Origin: Escherichia coli
GTDB taxonomy: Bacteria > Pseudomonadota > Gammaproteobacteria > Enterobacterales > Enterobacteriaceae
Length of the DNA: 64,000 bases
Reading direction: 5' to 3' (one strand)
NCBI RefSeq assembly: GCF_041886205.1
Contig: NZ_CP169029.1
In this document: positions 35,171 to 44,833 of the stretch, one piece after another
Layout: every line of letters starts with the position of its first letter
Numbering within the stretch: the stretch's first letter is position 1
Program-made: the position numbers and the translations under genes
Notes under the pieces: generated by a model
What the model was told of the DNA's origin: nothing
The model's input: only the letters and a program-made list of their open reading frames with translations
The model's database searches: none

Positions 35171-37920
<2,750 letters not shown>

Positions 37921-37923
37921 GGA

Positions 37924-38571
37924 ATGGGTAAGATGAACCATCAGGATGAATTGCCGTTAGCGAAAGTCAGCGAAGTTGACGAGGCGAAGCGGCAATGGTT
38001 GCAGGGGATGCGTCACCCCGTTGATACGGTAACCGAACCAGAACCTGCTGAAATCCTGGCTGAGTTCATTCGCCAGCATTCTGCGGCTGGGCAGCTGGTG
38101 GCGCGCGCCGTGTTTCTCTCGCCACCCTATTTGGTTGCAGAAGAGGAACTGTCAGTTTTGCTGGAAAGCATTAAGCAGAACGGAGACTACGCGGATATCG
38201 CTTGTTTGACGGGAAGCAAGGATGATTACTATTACTCAACGCAGGCCATGAGTGAAAACTACGCGGCGATGTCTTTGCAAGTTGTGGAGCAGGACATTTG
38301 TCGCGCCATTGCACACGCCGTTCGTTTTGAGTGCCAGACGTATCCTCGTCCTTACAAAGTCGCCATGCTGATGCAAGCGCCATATTACTTCCAGGAAGCG
38401 CAGATTGAAGCCGCGATCGCCGCGATGGATGTTGCACCTGAATATGCCGATATACGGCAGGTGGAGTCATCGACGGCGGTGTTGTACTTGTTTAGCGAGC
38501 GATTTATGACCTATGGCAAGGCTTATGGCTTATGCGAATGGTTCGAGGTAGAGCAGTTTCAGAACCCCTGA
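37924..38571 (+). CDS. ydhW: uncharacterised protein YdhW
   Basis: 215-aa ORF in operon position between ydhV and ydhX. Confidence 0.82.
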   Translation: MGKMNHQDELPLAKVSEVDEAKRQWLQGMRHPVDTVTEPEPAEILAEFIRQHSAAGQLVARAVFLSPPYLVAEEELSVLLESIKQNGDYADIACLTGSKDDYYYSTQAMSENYAAMSLQVVEQDICRAIAHAVRFECQTYPRPYKVAMLMQAPYYFQEAQIEAAIAAMDVAPEYADIRQVESSTAVLYLFSERFMTYGKAYGLCEWFEVEQFQNP

Positions 38572-38634
38572 AATTTCAGGGAGATGTCATGGATAGGGTG
38601 GACAGTTGCAGCCACTGCATTAGGGGATAATCAG

Positions 38635-39303
38635 ATGTCCTTCACTCGACGCAAATTTGTTCTGGGGATGGGAACAGTAATCTTTTTTACTGGTTCTGCG
38701 TCTTCTCTGTTAGCGAACACGAGGCAAGAAAAGGAAGTTCGGTATGCCATGATTCATGACGAGTCACGGTGCAATGGCTGTAATATTTGCGCCCGCGCAT
38801 GCCGTAAAACTAACCACGTCCCCGCTCAGGGAAGCCGTTTATCGATAGCACACATTCCAGTCACCGATAACGACAACGAAACGCAGTATCACTTTTTTCG
38901 CCAGTCATGTCAGCACTGCGAAGATGCTCCGTGCATCGACGTTTGCCCGACGGGGGCATCGTGGCGTGATGAGCAGGGGATCGTGCGGGTAGAAAAATCG
39001 CAGTGCATCGGCTGCAGTTATTGCATTGGCGCTTGTCCGTACCAGGTTCGCTACCTTAACCCTGTCACTAAAGTGGCAGATAAATGTGATTTCTGCGCTG
39101 AGTCCCGGCTGGCAAAAGGCTTTCCGCCCATTTGCGTCAGCGCTTGTCCGGAACACGCATTGATCTTTGGTCGCGAAGATAGCCCAGAAATTCAGGCGTG
39201 GTTGCAGGAAAATAAATACTATCAATATCAGCTACCTGGTGCCGGGAAACCGCATCTGTATCGCCGGTTCGGTCAACATTTGATTAAAAAGGAAAATGTA
39301 TGA
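38635..39303 (+). CDS. ydhX: 4Fe-4S ferredoxin-like protein (Tat signal)
   Basis: ORF 38584..39303; start chosen at MSFTRRKFVLGMGT giving 222 aa; four Cys clusters. Confidence 0.85.
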   Translation: MSFTRRKFVLGMGTVIFFTGSASSLLANTRQEKEVRYAMIHDESRCNGCNICARACRKTNHVPAQGSRLSIAHIPVTDNDNETQYHFFRQSCQHCEDAPCIDVCPTGASWRDEQGIVRVEKSQCIGCSYCIGACPYQVRYLNPVTKVADKCDFCAESRLAKGFPPICVSACPEHALIFGREDSPEIQAWLQENKYYQYQLPGAGKPHLYRRFGQHLIKKENV

Positions 39304-40085
39304 ACCCGTCGCAACATGCTGAACAGTTTCAGAGCCAGTTAGCGAACTATGTGCCACAGTTCACTCCCGAATTTTGGCCGGTGTGGTTGATCATTGCCGG
39401 AGTATTGCTGGTTGGGATGTGGTTGGTGCTGGGGCTGCACGCCTTGCTTCGTGCTCGTGGCGTGAAGAAATCAGCCACCGATCATGGTGAGAAGATTTAT
39501 CTTTACAGCAAAGCGGTCAGATTATGGCACTGGTCGAATGCGTTACTCTTTGTATTGTTGCTGGCAAGTGGGCTGATAAATCACTTTGCGCTGGTGGGCG
39601 CAACTGCGGTCAAAAGTCTGGTTGCGTTGCATGAAGTTTGCGGATTTTTGTTACTCGCATGCTGGCTCGGCTTTGTGCTGATCAATGCTGTTGGGGGTAA
39701 TGGTCACCACTATCGCATTCGTCGTCAGGGGTGGCTGGAACGAGCGGCAAAACAAACGCGATTTTATTTGTTTGGCATTATGCAGGGGGAAGAACATCCT
39801 TTCCCGGCAACAACCCAGTCTAAATTTAATCCCTTACAGCAGGTCGCCTATGTTGGTGTCATGTATGGATTGCTGCCGTTGTTACTATTGACGGGGCTGC
39901 TGTGTCTCTATCCGCAAGCCGTGGGAGATGTGTTTCCTGGCGTAAGATACTGGTTATTGCAGGCGCATTTTGCTCTGGCATTTATAAGCCTCTTTTTTAT
40001 CTTCGGTCATCTTTATCTTTGCACCACGGGGCGTACGCCACACGAAACCTTTAAAAGCATGGTCGATGGCTATCACCGGCACTAA
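39300..40085 (+). CDS. ydhU: cytochrome b-type membrane subunit (PhsC/NrfD-like)
   Basis: 261-aa polytopic ORF; start overlaps ydhX stop. Confidence 0.85.
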   Translation: MNPSQHAEQFQSQLANYVPQFTPEFWPVWLIIAGVLLVGMWLVLGLHALLRARGVKKSATDHGEKIYLYSKAVRLWHWSNALLFVLLLASGLINHFALVGATAVKSLVALHEVCGFLLLACWLGFVLINAVGGNGHHYRIRRQGWLERAAKQTRFYLFGIMQGEEHPFPATTQSKFNPLQQVAYVGVMYGLLPLLLLTGLLCLYPQAVGDVFPGVRYWLLQAHFALAFISLFFIFGHLYLCTTGRTPHETFKSMVDGYHRH

Positions 40086-40088
40086 CGA

Positions 40089-40901
40089 ATGATCATTACA
40101 CGAGCAGACCTGCGAGAATGGCGTATCGGAGCGGTGATGTATCGCTGGTTCCTGCGCCATTTCCCACGCGGCGGTAGTTATGCCGATATTCATCATGCAC
40201 TGATTGAGGAAGGATATACGGACTGGGCGGAGAGTCTGGTTGAGTATGCGTGGAAAAAATGGCTGGCGGATGAAAACTTCGCGCATCAGGAAGTTTCCTC
40301 TATGCAAAAACTGGCCACAGACCCCGGAGAGATACCATTTTGCAGTCAGTTTGCCCGCAGCGACGATCATGCTCGCATCGGCTGTTGTGAGGATAACGCC
40401 CGAATCGCAACCGCTGGGTATGCCGCGCAAATTGCCAGTATGGGTTATAGCGTGCGGATTGGAAGTGTCGGCTTTAACAGTCACATTGGCAGCTCCGGTG
40501 AACGCGCACGGGTTGCTGTAACCGGTAATTCTTCGCGGATAAGCAGCGCTGGAGATAGTAGTCGGATTGCGAACACCGGAATGCGAGTACGCGTTTGTAC
40601 ATTGGGTGAACGGTGTCATGTCGCCAGTAATGGTGACCTGGCGCAAATCGCCAGCTTTGGCGCAAACGCCAGAATTGCCAACAGCGGCGACAATGTACAC
40701 ATCATTGCCAGCGGTGAAAATTCAACGGTTGTGAGCACGGGCGTGGTCGACTCAATTATTCTCGGGCCAGGGGGAAGCGCCGCACTGGCATATCATGACG
40801 GCGAAAGAGTTCGCTTCGCCGTCGCCATTGAAGGTGAAAACAATATTCGAGCCGGAGTCCGCTATCGTCTTAATGAACAGCATCAGTTTGTTGAGTGCTG
40901 A
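40089..40901 (+). CDS. ydhT: uncharacterised protein with about 13 tandem 9-residue repeats
   Basis: 270-aa ORF; repeats with the pattern xRIxxxGxx visible in the translation. Confidence 0.85.
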   Translation: MIITRADLREWRIGAVMYRWFLRHFPRGGSYADIHHALIEEGYTDWAESLVEYAWKKWLADENFAHQEVSSMQKLATDPGEIPFCSQFARSDDHARIGCCEDNARIATAGYAAQIASMGYSVRIGSVGFNSHIGSSGERARVAVTGNSSRISSAGDSSRIANTGMRVRVCTLGERCHVASNGDLAQIASFGANARIANSGDNVHIIASGENSTVVSTGVVDSIILGPGGSAALAYHDGERVRFAVAIEGENNIRAGVRYRLNEQHQFVEC

Positions 40902-40912
40902 TAGCTTTACCT

Positions 40913-42517
40913 TTAATCAAACGAAAGACGCCGACGTGCACGGGATGCAGGTTTTACGACCGCCCGAGCCATCGCCTCACCAATTTCTGCACATGCCGTA
41001 AGTCCCTGAACGAAAGGCTGGTCGTGCATCAACCAGGGCAACGCGCCGAACGCTACGCGTCCACGAATATCTTCGGGTTGCTGTAACGTATAATCTTCGC
41101 CAACATCAGGGATTTCATCCCCTGTTTTCTGTAATTGCTCGCGTAGCCCAGGGAAAGGAATATCTTTCACTTTAAGCGGACGCTGTCCGCGGGCATCAAT
41201 AAAAACGTCAAACGAGTAGCTGTTGTCTTCCGTTTTCAGGACGGTGCGCGACTCATTAATTTCCATTTCGTAGTCTTCACCGAGGGCGAGAATATGAATG
41301 ATCCCCGCTTCACGTAAGGCCAGCAGCCGACGAATAGACTCTGAAGGGATTGCCGCATAATTATCGATAAAAACCCGGGTAAGGCCTTTACTGAACCGTT
41401 TATGGTCGTGTTCATTCAGATGTGGAACAATTTCCTGTACGGCTTCATGCAGGCGCAGAATGACATAACGCCAGGGAACAGTATGTTTTTCTCGTTTATT
41501 GCGTTCGACTTCCTGGAGATTTTTTTCTGCCCAGTCAAATGGGTCGCGTTGTTTGCGCTCGGCAAACCAGGCTTGAGCAAAGGAATCGACATTCAGGCTC
41601 TCTAAGGCTATGCGTTGGCTCCAGTCTGGATCAGCAAACTTGATTTCCTCTACTATCAATCTAAATACCCGATCCAAAAGGCCCTCTTCGCCTTTTTGAA
41701 TCTCAGCATTTAATGCCTGATCGGTGACAATGTGTAAGGACTCGTAGGGAATAGGGCAATAGAAATCGGCTTCGGGTAAAATACCCGTGCGCGACATCAA
41801 CGTGATATTTAGCTTTTCACTTGCGTTATCGCGGTGAAAAACGACGTGTTGTTTATCATCTTCAATGAACGAACCATGCTGAATAGCCACTGCCATTGCC
41901 GCATCCAGTCCGCTCAAGGATGTTCCCATAATACCCACGTTACACGCATCGACCTTTGCTTCCATCAGGCCTGACCACGGGCTGGGAAAATACGTTCGGG
42001 TTGCTTCTTCTTCATCAGGCCAGACGTGACCCGTGGCAATCACCGCTAAATCAAACGTCTCGCTGGGTAAACCCTGATTTGTAGCGAGCATGACGCCAGC
42101 ATTTGTAATTTGCAGATCGGTAACCTGGCATGATTCATAAACAGCCACTGCAAATTTTTGCTTTCGTGCCTGGTCTACTAATCGTAAAAATTGATCGCGG
42201 AAATATTCGCCCAGCAGAATTCGCGGTAAAAACTGACGATCGTGCAAGGTTTCTTTTTTAACGCCATAACGCTGGAGATGGCTGGCTTCTTGCTTTTGTA
42301 GCCATTCGAGATACGTACAATTAATCGGCGGTATTTCAATACTGGCAATATTTGCCAGCATCATTTTTGAGTTTTCCTCATCACTGTATGGCATCCCGAC
42401 ACCGGCCTCGTCAGCCTGCTCGAAGATAGAAATAGAAAGTGGAGTTTGTTGCTGTAGAAGCGAGAATAAGGTGTAGATCCCCGTAGGCCCGGCACCCACA
42501 ATAGCAATTTTTTTCAT
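40913..42517 (-). CDS. ydhS: FAD/NAD(P)-binding protein
   Basis: 534-aa ORF with N-terminal GAGPTG dinucleotide-binding motif. Confidence 0.88.
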   Translation of the reverse strand: MKKIAIVGAGPTGIYTLFSLLQQQTPLSISIFEQADEAGVGMPYSDEENSKMMLANIASIEIPPINCTYLEWLQKQEASHLQRYGVKKETLHDRQFLPRILLGEYFRDQFLRLVDQARKQKFAVAVYESCQVTDLQITNAGVMLATNQGLPSETFDLAVIATGHVWPDEEEATRTYFPSPWSGLMEAKVDACNVGIMGTSLSGLDAAMAVAIQHGSFIEDDKQHVVFHRDNASEKLNITLMSRTGILPEADFYCPIPYESLHIVTDQALNAEIQKGEEGLLDRVFRLIVEEIKFADPDWSQRIALESLNVDSFAQAWFAERKQRDPFDWAEKNLQEVERNKREKHTVPWRYVILRLHEAVQEIVPHLNEHDHKRFSKGLTRVFIDNYAAIPSESIRRLLALREAGIIHILALGEDYEMEINESRTVLKTEDNSYSFDVFIDARGQRPLKVKDIPFPGLREQLQKTGDEIPDVGEDYTLQQPEDIRGRVAFGALPWLMHDQPFVQGLTACAEIGEAMARAVVKPASRARRRLSFD

Positions 42518-42903
42518 TGTTACTTACCTGTACGCATTCTTTCGAATTTAGTGTTATCAGATAAGTTTGGTTGAGATTTTTAGAATTTGAGAAATTTCAG
42601 ACAGGGATGAAAAGGGCGCTAACCGCCCTTGATTAAATTCTGTCAGGCGAGTTTTGCCTGATTGATTTGACTCAGTGGCTCATTGACATCGAAAACTTTG
42701 GCGACAACTTCCTCAACGCCGAGATTTTTAAGTCGGGCAGTATGTTTTTCCAGATAGGCAAGGGCGCTTTTTTCATCAGTAAAAAGATAGATCCCACCGG
42801 CTTCGTGGTTCTTTTCACTTTCTGTCCATACCTTCCACAGAAAACCAGGTTCCTGATTAATTGAACCGCCCCGGGTTTCCTGGAGAGTGTTTTATCTGTG
42901 AAC

Positions 42904-43794
42904 TCAGGCTGCCAGATCATCGTTTCCGATGGAAGCATAATAAGCTTTTTCTGCTTCTGCCGGAGGAGTATGGCCCAGCCTTTCCAGCAATCGTCGATTG
43001 TTATACCAGTCCACCCACGTGAGTGTGGCCAGTTCCACTTCTGCACGGTTTTTCCAGCTCTTACGGTGTATTACCTCCGCTTTGTAAAGACCATTGATGC
43101 TCTCCGCCATCGCGTTGTCATACGAGTCGCCTGTACTTCCTGTTGATGCCAGTAATCCGGCTTCCTTAAGCCGCTGTGTGTAGGCCAGCGATACATACTG
43201 AGAACCTTTATCACTGTGATGGACCGTGCCGGACGGTCGACGGGCCCATAACGCCTGCTCCAGTGCATCCAGCACGAATGTCGTTTCCATGGACGATGAG
43301 ACCCGCCACCCCACGATGTATCCGGCAAACACATCAATGATGAACGCCACATAGACGAAGCCCCGCCATGTGCTGACGTAAGTAAAATCAGCCACCCACA
43401 GCTGGTCAGGTCGTTCTGCCACGAACTGACGGTTTACGCGGTCGCCTGCGGCAACGGCTTTCCGGCTGATGGTCGTACGGACCTTTTTACCCCGGAGAAC
43501 ACCGGCAAGTCCCATAACCGCCATGAGACGTGCCACAGTGCATCTGGCCACTCTGATACCTTCCCGTAACAACTGACGCCAGACTTTACGCACACCGTAT
43601 ACCTTGTGATTTTCATCGTATACGCGCTGTATCTCTTTCTTCAGCCAGTCATCGCGCTGCGCACGGGCACTGCGTTTATCCGGATGATGTCGCTGTTGCT
43701 GACAGTGGTAATACGTTGACGGGGCAATATGCAGTTCGCTGCATAGCGGTCCGACCCCGTACTGCTCACGCAGCTTATCCAGCAGTGGCATCAT
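42904..43794 (-). CDS. IS3-family transposase OrfB (DDE integrase core)
   Basis: 296-aa ORF; overlaps orfA 3' end at an A-run consistent with -1 frameshifting. Confidence 0.88.
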
Positions 43795-44117
43795 TTTTTC
43801 CAGAGGCGGTCGAACTCCGCCTTCGCAAAATAAGCGGAAGCCTGGCGAAGGATATCGTTACTGCGGCGCAGTTCACGATTTTCACGTTCCAGCTCTTTCA
43901 GACGCTGACGTTCAGCGGTGGTGAGCCCTCCATCACCGCCCCCGGTATCCCGCTCATGCTGGCGAACCCAGACACGCAGAGTCTCCGGCGTACAGCCAAT
44001 CTTTGGAGCAATGGAACAAATTGTCGCCCATTGTGAGTCATATTCGCTCTGACTTTCCAGAACCATACGGACTGCCCGTTGACGGACTTCGGGGGAAAAA
44101 CGAGTATTTTTAGTCAT
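43791..44117 (-). CDS. IS3-family transposase OrfA (HTH)
   Basis: 108-aa [26 protein letters not shown]... Confidence 0.88.
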
Positions 44118-44368
44118 CCTGTTTACCTCTTTCTCAGGAAGTTTAGTCTCCAGGATTCCCGGGGCGGTTCAAATCGACTCAGCAAGCGGTTTAAGCTGCT
44201 CAGCCATTGCGTCGCCAAATGGGCCATTAAAAGCAAAATGAAGTTGTAACAAAGTTGCCATAGCGATTCTCCTTCTGATAACGCATACGAAGACAGTGTA
44301 AATCTTTTAACGTATTGGATACAGAGAAGAAACAGAGGGAAAAAGGAGAAGACCAGATTAAGAAAATC

Positions 44369-44445
44369 TGGTGCGTCCGAGTGGACTCGAACCACCGACC
44401 CCCACCATGTCAAGGTGGTGCTCTAACCAACTGAGCTACGGACGC
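44369..44445 (-). tRNA. valW: tRNA-Val (GAC anticodon)
   Basis: Reverse complement reads GCGTCCGTAGCTCAGTTGGTTAGAGCACCACCTTGACATGGTGGGGGTCGGTGGTTCGAGTCCACTCGGACGCACCA; valV/valW assignment by position; +/-1 nt. Confidence 0.9.
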
Positions 44446-44449
44446 AGGA

Positions 44450-44526
44450 TGGTGCGTTCAATTGGACTCGAACCAACGACCCCCACCATGTCAAGGTGGT
44501 GCTCTAACCAACTGAGCTATGAACGC
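44450..44526 (-). tRNA. valV: tRNA-Val (GAC anticodon)
   Basis: Reverse complement reads GCGTTCATAGCTCAGTTGGTTAGAGCACCACCTTGACATGGTGGGGGTCGTTGGTTCGAGTCCAATTGAACGCACCA; +/-1 nt. Confidence 0.9.
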
Positions 44527-44833
44527 AACGTTGTAGGTGACAACGGGGACGAATATTAGCGGCAGAGTGGGAAGGTGGCAAGAGGCAAAACGTAATTTTC
44601 TGCGCTATTTCGACCGTTTGCAGAGCTTTTAAGCAAATTGGCTATATTTTGTTGATTTGCAAGGGCGATTTTTATTCAGGATCGCATTTACATCTGATAC
44701 AACCCAATAATTCGTGTATCAGAGTTTAAACAGAGTTGTTTGCCACCATCTCAAATCTGTCGTGGATAAATCCTCCGTAGCCTTTACACTTAGGTAGCAA
44801 TAAAGGCACACAGATGCAGCAAAGGAATAAATC

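Follow-up and report, generated by a model that had tools for sequence, protein, structure and literature searches.

YdhT, the last product of the Escherichia coli ydh operon, is a predicted nonapeptide beta-solenoid related to phage early-region proteins

Beta-solenoids built from short tandem units are a familiar class of fold. The RTX nonapeptide beta-roll, as seen in the CyaA RTX blocks (PDB 6sus and 9p6c), is made of nine-residue units that each contribute one short strand and a glycine turn, and two of these units form an 18-residue coil. The Marinomonas primoryensis antifreeze protein (MpAFP; region IV, PDB 3p4g) folds into Ca2+-bound coils of 19 residues and displays an ice-binding face; steric constraints exclude a nine-residue coil in a beta-solenoid. 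Two-faced solenoids also include the ryegrass ice-binding protein (3ult) and curli CsgA (8c50 and 8enq), whereas the beta-helix core of SufB/SufD (1vh4 and 5awf) is a cytoplasmic accessory that serves Fe-S enzymes. Enzymes of respiration that depend on twin-arginine translocation (Tat) have system-specific cytoplasmic accessories of their own in the DmsD, TorD and NarJ-type systems. Here we describe YdhT, the product of the ydhT gene at positions 40089-40901 on the plus strand of a 64,000-nucleotide stretch of Escherichia coli DNA (contig NZ_CP169029.1 of assembly GCF_041886205.1, hereafter the window). Its middle part is an array of nine-residue units that is predicted to form a solenoid rod, and its relatives outside the ydh operon are phage genes.

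In the list of open reading frames (ORFs) the ydhT coding sequence specifies 270 residues plus a stop codon. The product scores 490.4 bits against the NCBIfam equivalog NF007410 'protein YdhT' (cut-off 300), with residues 2-270 of 270 covered, and the gene is 99.0% identical in DNA to b1669 of MG1655 and matches ydhT as annotated in strain 6EVA at 100% identity. Of 5426 complete genomes of the species, 5417 carry it. We prefer the start at 40089 to the alternative at Met17 because distant homologues keep an ITxxxLRxW motif at the N-terminus. The initial annotation of the window, made from the sequence alone, had stated that YdhT has no assigned function, and this agrees with both the database label ('uncharacterized') and a literature search that found no paper on the E. 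coli protein: most matches to 'ydhT' refer to the Bacillus subtilis mannanase YdhT, to a misspelling of yhdT or to human YTHDF-like strings.

The same annotation had counted about 13 tandem nine-residue units at 40360-40740. Joined end to end, these units match the translation exactly at 40371-40721 (plus strand, residues 95-211). The register continues through two weaker units, STVVSTGVV and DSIILGPGG (residues 212-229, up to nucleotide 40775), and the structure prediction described below adds one strand-turn unit upstream (residues 86-94), which refines the array to a total of 15-16 structural units. We computed the repeat statistics over the 15 units of residues 95-229. Protein identity is 0.325 at lag 9 and 0.27-0.34 at lags 18, 27 and 36, as compared with 0.02-0.10 at all other lags up to 39. 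The lag-9 value was reached by none of 20,000 residue shuffles and lies 12.8 standard deviations above the shuffles' best lag, and the repeat is therefore far better than chance. A 27-bp periodicity of the DNA, which had also been proposed, is borne out by identities of 0.43-0.46 at lags 27, 54, 81 and 108; the value of 0.45 at lag 27 compares with 0.28 in codon-shuffled controls (z 7.6, reached by none of 5000). Within the aligned units, position 3 is Ile or Val in 15 of 15, position 7 is Gly in 13 and position 2 is Arg, His or Gln in 13, and the unit consensus reads [A/S]-[R/H/Q]-[I/V]-[A/G]-S-x-G-x-x. Tandem Repeats Finder reported no repeat within 40000-41000, which, together with the periodicity of the protein, points to an old and degenerate repeat that is maintained at the protein level, with no recent tandem array in the DNA.

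We modeled YdhT with AlphaFold2 using a 78-sequence alignment. The resulting model has a predicted local distance difference test score (pLDDT) of 92.6 and a predicted template modeling score (pTM) of 0.87, and it is repetitive and not globular, in line with the beta-solenoid fold that had been proposed from the repeat pattern. The N-terminal residues 1-77 (40089-40319) form a five-helix domain that probably corresponds to Pfam YdhT_N (PF27195), a label from a newer Pfam release that is precomputed in the protein database for a 98%-identical representative and for all orthologues; a jackhmmer profile of residues 1-85 recovers 100 of the 194 homologues that we collected. A short acidic linker follows (40320-40343, residues 78-85), which is the stretch modeled with the lowest confidence (pLDDT of 78 and 71 in the two blocks spanning residues 71-90) and the place where Edwardsiella- and Jinshanibacter-type orthologues differ in length by 45-55 residues. 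The predicted rod (40344-40775, residues 86-229) comprises 16 strand-turn units of nine residues, with short strands at 87-90, 96-99, 105-109, 114-117 and onward to 213-216, one per nine residues; the strands within residues 220-269 are longer. The chain ends in a beta cap (40776-40898, residues 230-270; AALAYHDGERVRF...EGENNIRAGVRYRL...FVEC) with longer strands (230-236, 241-247, 258-261 and 267-269) and a pLDDT of 97-98. This cap is the most conserved part of the superfamily and is kept in both the ydh-type and the phage-type homologues.

In the predicted fold, the core would be packed with the Ile or Val of unit position 3 and its small neighbours, the turn would fall at the Gly of position 7 and the Arg, His or Gln at position 2 would form a ladder on the surface. 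Strand lengths assigned by DSSP alternate 5, 4, 5, 4 between residues 105 and 171, which amounts to an 18-residue super-period. Because of this alternation, of the steric impossibility of a nine-residue coil and of the 19- and 18-residue coils of MpAFP and RTX proteins, the most likely arrangement places two nonapeptides in each 18-residue coil, which would give about 8 coils in a flat solenoid of two sheets, roughly 35-40 Å long.

All of the best structural neighbours of the model are beta-solenoids. They include RTX blocks (6sus and 9p6c, at 2.5-2.8 Å) and also DUF4097-type 'adhesins', curli CsgA, autotransporter passengers, tailspikes and CAP/TBCC beta-helices. MpAFP region IV is 9% identical to YdhT in sequence and is a structural analogue only, as are the ryegrass and curli solenoids. 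The SufB/SufD core is of interest because YdhY, YdhX and YdhV are Fe-S proteins, but its likeness to YdhT is generic and shared with dozens of unrelated solenoids, and the ydh operon has no SufC-like ATPase; we rejected a SufBD-like Fe-S scaffold, as no Cys or His is conserved among YdhT orthologues. Searching the PDB with the family profile gave no sequence relative, the only match being to the Spt5 C-terminal nonapeptide repeats (E 0.005), which we dismissed as a compositional coincidence, and a profile of the N-terminal domain found nothing in the PDB or Pfam. No Pfam family, even in the newer release, spans residues 86-270, and a Pfam scan of YdhT matched no hexapeptide, pentapeptide or bactofilin model; a DUF6876 match at residues 36-106 was disregarded as sub-threshold (E 0.034, 14.6 bits versus 27). 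Inspection of the YdhT sequence shows neither a signal peptide nor a membrane-spanning segment, no dedicated predictor having been run.

A phmmer search of 1.84 billion cluster representatives returned 632 relatives of YdhT at E ≤1e-3 and 219 at E ≤1e-10, most of which match residues 86-270, that is, the rod and the cap. Across these homologues the nonapeptide unit recurs in 6-22 copies with the family consensus [AS][RQK][ILV][AG]SSG[DYN]x. The N-terminal domains fall into several classes: among the 194 collected sequences, 100 are YdhT_N-like and 45 carry DUF7666 (PF24703), and a few homologues have PcfJ-like or DarG-like macro domains. DUF7666 is carried by 35 of the 78 aligned phmmer homologues. 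It was not detected in YdhT by Pfam scan, and comparison of the YdhT_N and DUF7666 profiles by hhalign indicated no relationship (probability 0.2%). An unclassified third type of N-terminal domain (M..LVLRTSDKDGRAHGGFQWP...) is joined to 10-24 units on IMG/VR contigs L037, L044, L045, L048 and L050; three contigs of one genome with this domain have 18, 20 and 24 units.

The true homologues of the rod and cap are phage early-region proteins, represented by phrog_4433, phrog_18079 and phrog_27197 (PHROGs, all of unknown function), by DUF7666 proteins, by gp55 of Edwardsiella phage GF-2 and by the 'ydhT' of phage phiKX1, and many of them also share YdhT_N. Residues 110-270 of YdhT match positions 145-310 of phrog_4433 (E 1.8e-6), and the cap corresponds to phrog_27197 and to the C-terminal end of phrog_4433. 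GF-2 gp55 is 36% identical over 90% of YdhT and is encoded directly after an N-like antiterminator in the early-left operon, and a Limnobaculum prophage copy sits between a CI-like repressor gene and genes for a PD-(D/E)XK nuclease, an Enc34-type SSB and Pol A. On metagenomic contigs, homologues lie among YqaJ, RusA and GapR genes (L003), near terminase (L009), two genes upstream of RecT (L011) and near integrase and primase (L012 and L013). Others occur in Komagataeibacter (phiKX1 'ydhT'), Paracoccus and Bacteroides phages. We collected IMG/VR loci with the cap alignment, and none of the 42 contains a Ydh gene.

Fusions in which a DarG-like macro domain is followed by DUF7666, 16-21 units and the cap are represented by the metagenomic contigs L012 and L013 (phage-like, about 67 kb) and the proteins P0079 and P0090; these fusions suggest a link between the module and phage-host conflict based on ADP-ribosylation. 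A full-length, 99.3% identical ydhT is also present in CP025887.1, an unannotated 23-kb record named 'Escherichia phage 503046', which probably represents host chromosome deposited under a phage name, or DNA packaged by transduction, and not an instance of phage-borne ydhT.

The repeat array is frozen in the ydh-type proteins and fluid in the phage type. Lag-9 identity is 0.31 ± 0.04 in ydh-type arrays and has a median of 0.71 in the others; the arrays count 14 ± 2 units as opposed to 6-22, and the isoelectric point (pI) of the repeat region is 9.25 ± 0.56 as opposed to 4-10. Unlike YdhT, the phage homologues have near-identical repeats (lag-9 identity 0.7-0.9), 3-24 units and variable charge, and even where their N-termini are almost the same, the count can be 3, 8, 9, 16 or 22. 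Their N-terminal domain either contains a W-x-A-C motif, which is absent from the ydh clade, or has given way to DUF7666, macro or PcfJ-like domains. The initial annotation had raised the question of whether repeat number varies between strains. Within E. coli it does not, barring rare deletions, whereas among the phage relatives it varies widely. Array length in E. coli is essentially fixed, the 270-residue form and its alternative-start versions making up thousands of database members, and the exceptions are single-member variants: an E. coli sequence with an in-register deletion of 72 residues (8 units) between two AQIAS units and a Citrobacter-like sequence with an in-register deletion of 45 residues.

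A neighbour-joining tree of the N-terminal domain and cap (midpoint-rooted, without support values) splits one ydh clade from the rest. All five members of this clade whose genomic context is known lie in ydh operons and lack the W-x-A-C motif; outside it, all four members of known context are phage genes that carry the motif. We consider it highly probable that YdhT has the architecture described here and that the ydh arrays, which are degenerate, basic and fixed in length, belong to a vertically inherited branch of an otherwise phage-borne family.

Within cellular genomes, ydhT travels with the ydh operon. We scanned one genome per GTDB species with peptide patterns derived from ydh-type caps and found a colinear ydhY-V-W-X-U-T order at 33 of 37 species-representative loci, in Escherichia, Citrobacter, Leminorella, Budvicia, Brenneria, Serratia and Symbiopectobacterium. 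The four exceptions are in Chromobacterium, Limnobaculum, Trabulsiella and Asaia, one of which proved to be a prophage. Two further gammaproteobacterial ydh contexts were found at 35-40% identity. In Edwardsiella tarda CP100802.1, a ydhY-V-W-X-T cluster without the ydhU cytochrome b gene adjoins the nap (periplasmic nitrate reductase) cluster, which indicates that YdhT is retained where the membrane anchor is not. In the window, the ORFs and the MG1655 annotation agree with the earlier placement of ydhT as the last gene of ydhYVWXUT. The junction with ydhU (40083-40091, plus strand) reads ...CAC TAA CGA ATG..., so that 3 nucleotides separate the ydhU stop codon from the ydhT ATG, an arrangement consistent with co-transcription and translational coupling. 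A consensus scan detected no sigma-70-like promoter within 39800-41100, and the sole plus-strand sequence resembling a terminator (39911-39925) falls within the coding sequence of ydhU, a count within chance expectation.

We propose that YdhT is a soluble and probably cytoplasmic protein, with a five-helix head, a straight rod and a conserved cap, that would most likely serve the Ydh oxidoreductase (YdhV/Y/X/U), without catalysis of its own, as a rigid adaptor or an accessory in maturation. It would bind through both end domains and the basic surface of the rod, possibly in concert with the acidic YdhW. The rod and cap form a module whose other carriers are phage early-region proteins, and in the ydh copies the array has become degenerate, basic and fixed in length. 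The accessory role is suggested by the lack of a cofactor motif and of conserved cysteines in YdhT and by the co-inheritance of ydhT as the last gene of the tightly packed ydhYVWX(U)T cluster. No cofactor-binding Pfam domain was found in YdhT, and Cys99, Cys100, Cys170 and Cys176 are not conserved outside Escherichia and Citrobacter; with neither a cofactor domain nor a conserved Cys/His cluster, YdhT was rejected as a redox or cofactor subunit of Ydh. YdhW (pI 4.55) is likewise devoid of a cofactor motif and fast-evolving. Such a role would be analogous to that of the DmsD, TorD and NarJ-type accessories, whose fold YdhT does not share. Taken as a whole, the statement that YdhT is a three-part solenoid of phage-family origin serving Ydh seems to us evenly balanced between right and wrong, and its accessory role taken by itself is a tentative assignment somewhat below that balance.

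Several observations weigh against this proposal. YdhT outpaces the redox subunits in divergence, with 35-42% identity where YdhV of the same genomes retains about 80%. Identities to the Citrobacter proteins are 93% for YdhY, 91% for YdhV, 85% for YdhX, 78% for YdhU, 66% for YdhT and 62% for YdhW, and those to the Brenneria proteins are 77, 80, 66, 62, about 39 and 49%, respectively, which makes YdhT and YdhW the least conserved operon products across genera. Natural lesions are also found: three clusters of frameshifted 287-residue forms (169, 26 and 2 members) stand beside 6294 and 467 members in the two largest intact clusters, and an ISSen4-like IS3 insertion splits ydhT in E. coli KFu023. 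These lesions imply that ydhT is dispensable in some lineages, although the gene is under purifying selection, with a ratio of nonsynonymous to synonymous substitution rates of 0.12-0.18 within E. coli (few counts, 8-20 differences per pair). All relatives outside the operon are phage genes, so the ancestral activity is unrelated to respiration. Finally, the proportion of 33 in 37 is biased toward ydh-type loci by the use of cap-derived patterns, the colinearity itself being unaffected. In the frameshifted forms, which are among the lesions seen in proteins P0004, P0006, P0008 and P0009, the C-terminal cap is replaced by out-of-frame sequence.

Some of these observations would be expected if YdhT were instead a domesticated or hitch-hiking phage early gene, expressed from the 3' end of the operon and acting in phage-host conflict (exclusion, anti-defence or host take-over) independently of Ydh redox chemistry. 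The homologues outside the operon lie in phage and prophage early regions by N, CI, RecT, Erf, YqaJ and ssDNA-binding genes, some are fused to DarG-like macro domains, and YdhT is one of the two least conserved operon products and is occasionally inactivated. Two published observations also connect ydhT genes to phages: a ydhT gene cluster is among the machine-learning predictors of infection by phage CBDS-07 (PMC12579225), and a 1413-nucleotide 'ydhT_1' of Serratia symbiotica shows a deletion of exactly 54 bp (two units) in a clone from phage-driven laboratory evolution that is also a dam mutant (PMC12505973). Both hints are correlative, however, and the Serratia clone is doubly mutated and its gene is not of the ydh type. 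In five enterobacterial families, and at identities as low as 35%, ydhT strictly keeps its colinear place after ydhYVWX(U); this argues against a role independent of Ydh, as do the 3-nucleotide junction with ydhU and the purifying selection on ydhT, and the clade-specific basic rod of fixed length suggests adaptation to a constant cellular partner. YdhT matched no PADLOC defence family, and neither did 7 of the 9 homologues scanned, the remaining two being fusion proteins that match DarG through their macro domain. We regard a phage-conflict function as unlikely, but as one to be taken seriously. The adjacency of phage relatives to recombination genes could also be read as a sign that the basic Arg/His/Gln ladder of the rod and a SAM/HhH-like N-terminal domain bind DNA or RNA, for instance in a regulator. 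All ydh-type proteins have a basic repeat region, and the weak fold neighbours of the N-terminal domain include the HhH and SAM modules of DisA, XPF and Pol X. On the other hand, no helix-turn-helix or other DNA-binding Pfam family was detected in YdhT, its overall pI is 6.2 and the pI of the phage relatives ranges from 4 to 10, so that charge is not a family property; a nucleic-acid-binding function appears quite improbable. The idea of a DNA mimic was rejected on account of the basic rod of the ydh-type proteins and the variable charge across the family.

The fold itself admits two other readings, both of which we hold to be very improbable. A calcium-binding beta-roll of the RTX type would account for the nine-residue period, the conserved Gly and the frequent Asp, and the RTX unit resembles that of YdhT in having one short strand and a Gly turn. 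The YdhT motif differs, though: neither it nor the family consensus contains the GGxGxD calcium loop, and HemolysinCabind (PF00353) was not matched even at E ≤1. YdhT is capped by its own N- and C-terminal domains and is probably not secreted, its presumed location being the low-calcium cytoplasm, and the ydh operon contains no secretion genes; we give this reading the least credence of all. An intertwined trimeric fibre of the collagen or tail-fibre kind is hardly more credible. It is suggested by the annotation of GF-2 gp55 as a 'putative collagen-like protein', by near-threshold Pfam Collagen matches in 10 of the 78 aligned homologues and by matches of several homologues to tail-fibre PHROGs (E 1e-4 to 1e-10). 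Yet Gly recurs every 9 residues in YdhT and not every 3, YdhT itself has no Pfam Collagen match, the tail-fibre matches are confined to Gly/Ser-rich repeats, the phage genes lie in early regions and not in tail modules, and a monomeric solenoid is predicted with the high scores given above.

A further but improbable reading would regard the phage proteins as a previously undescribed rod-and-cap class devoted to phage-host conflict, of which one member was captured once by Enterobacterales and frozen as an assembly or tethering factor for Ydh. The adjustable solenoid may then set the distance between a swappable N-terminal domain for effector function or recognition (YdhT_N, DUF7666, macro or PcfJ-like) and the constant cap, and the length and surface of the captured gene may have been frozen to serve an anaerobic molybdo- or tungsto-enzyme. 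If true, this would be a clear case of exaptation from phage to respiration. The protein and the family name were already public, and very probably so was the predicted fold. What our analysis adds is a statistical confirmation of the repeat, the recognition of a non-RTX nonapeptide motif that has no family model, the tie to a large family of phage early genes and the contrast between frozen and fluid arrays. The three-part architecture of helical head, basic rod and cap is now concrete for a product of the E. coli core genome. Among the operon products, two evolve fast and have no cofactor motif, YdhT and the acidic YdhW. The hypervariable repeat number of the wider family may interest phage biology; nothing established is overturned.

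The operon block upstream of ydhT occupies 35171-40085 on the plus strand of the window in the same gene order as in MG1655. On the basis of the ORFs, the MG1655 annotation and tblastn, ydhY lies at 35171-35797, ydhV at about 35818-37920, ydhW at 37924-38571, ydhX at about 38635-39303 and ydhU at 39300-40085, ydhX and ydhU overlapping by 4 nucleotides. Without an intervening stop, the ydhV frame extends back to an ATG at 35734 (728 residues) and so overlaps the end of ydhY; the annotated start near 35818 gives 700 residues. The N-terminus of YdhX (window 38584-38700) has the twin-arginine motif SFTRRKFVLG, and that of YdhY (window 35171-35300), which begins ...LTRLEFLRISGKGLAGLTIAPALLSLLGC, resembles a Tat-like signal with a possible lipobox, as judged by inspection. 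The operon is described as being under FNR/NarL regulation (Partridge et al. 2008, Microbiology 154:608, as cited in PMC3141248) and is the only E. coli operon with an enzyme of the AOR family (class V WOR), the physiological role of this enzyme being open (PMC13328260).

Opposite the repeats, a 248-residue ORF runs on the minus strand within ydhU and ydhT (window 39954-40700). Nothing marks it as a gene, and it probably arises because the coding strand is repetitive and GC-rich. Downstream, ydhS (40913-42517, minus strand), which encodes an FAD/NAD(P)-binding protein, is convergent with ydhT, lies outside the operon and ends 11 nucleotides from the ydhT stop codon; ydhS and ydhT were listed as a convergent overlapping transcript pair in a 2025 RNA-seq survey (PMC12288877). 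Beyond it, ydhR of this strain is interrupted by a 1310-bp insertion sequence of the IS3 family (window 42862-44171), with ORFs at 42904-43794 and 43791-44117 on the minus strand. Window positions 42400-42861 and 44172-44600 align to the MG1655 sequence flanking the insertion, with a 3-bp overlap that looks like a target-site duplication, and identical copies of the element carry the label 'IS3 family transposase' in numerous genomes of E. coli. The insertion is followed by the two tRNA-Val(GAC) genes at 44369-44526.

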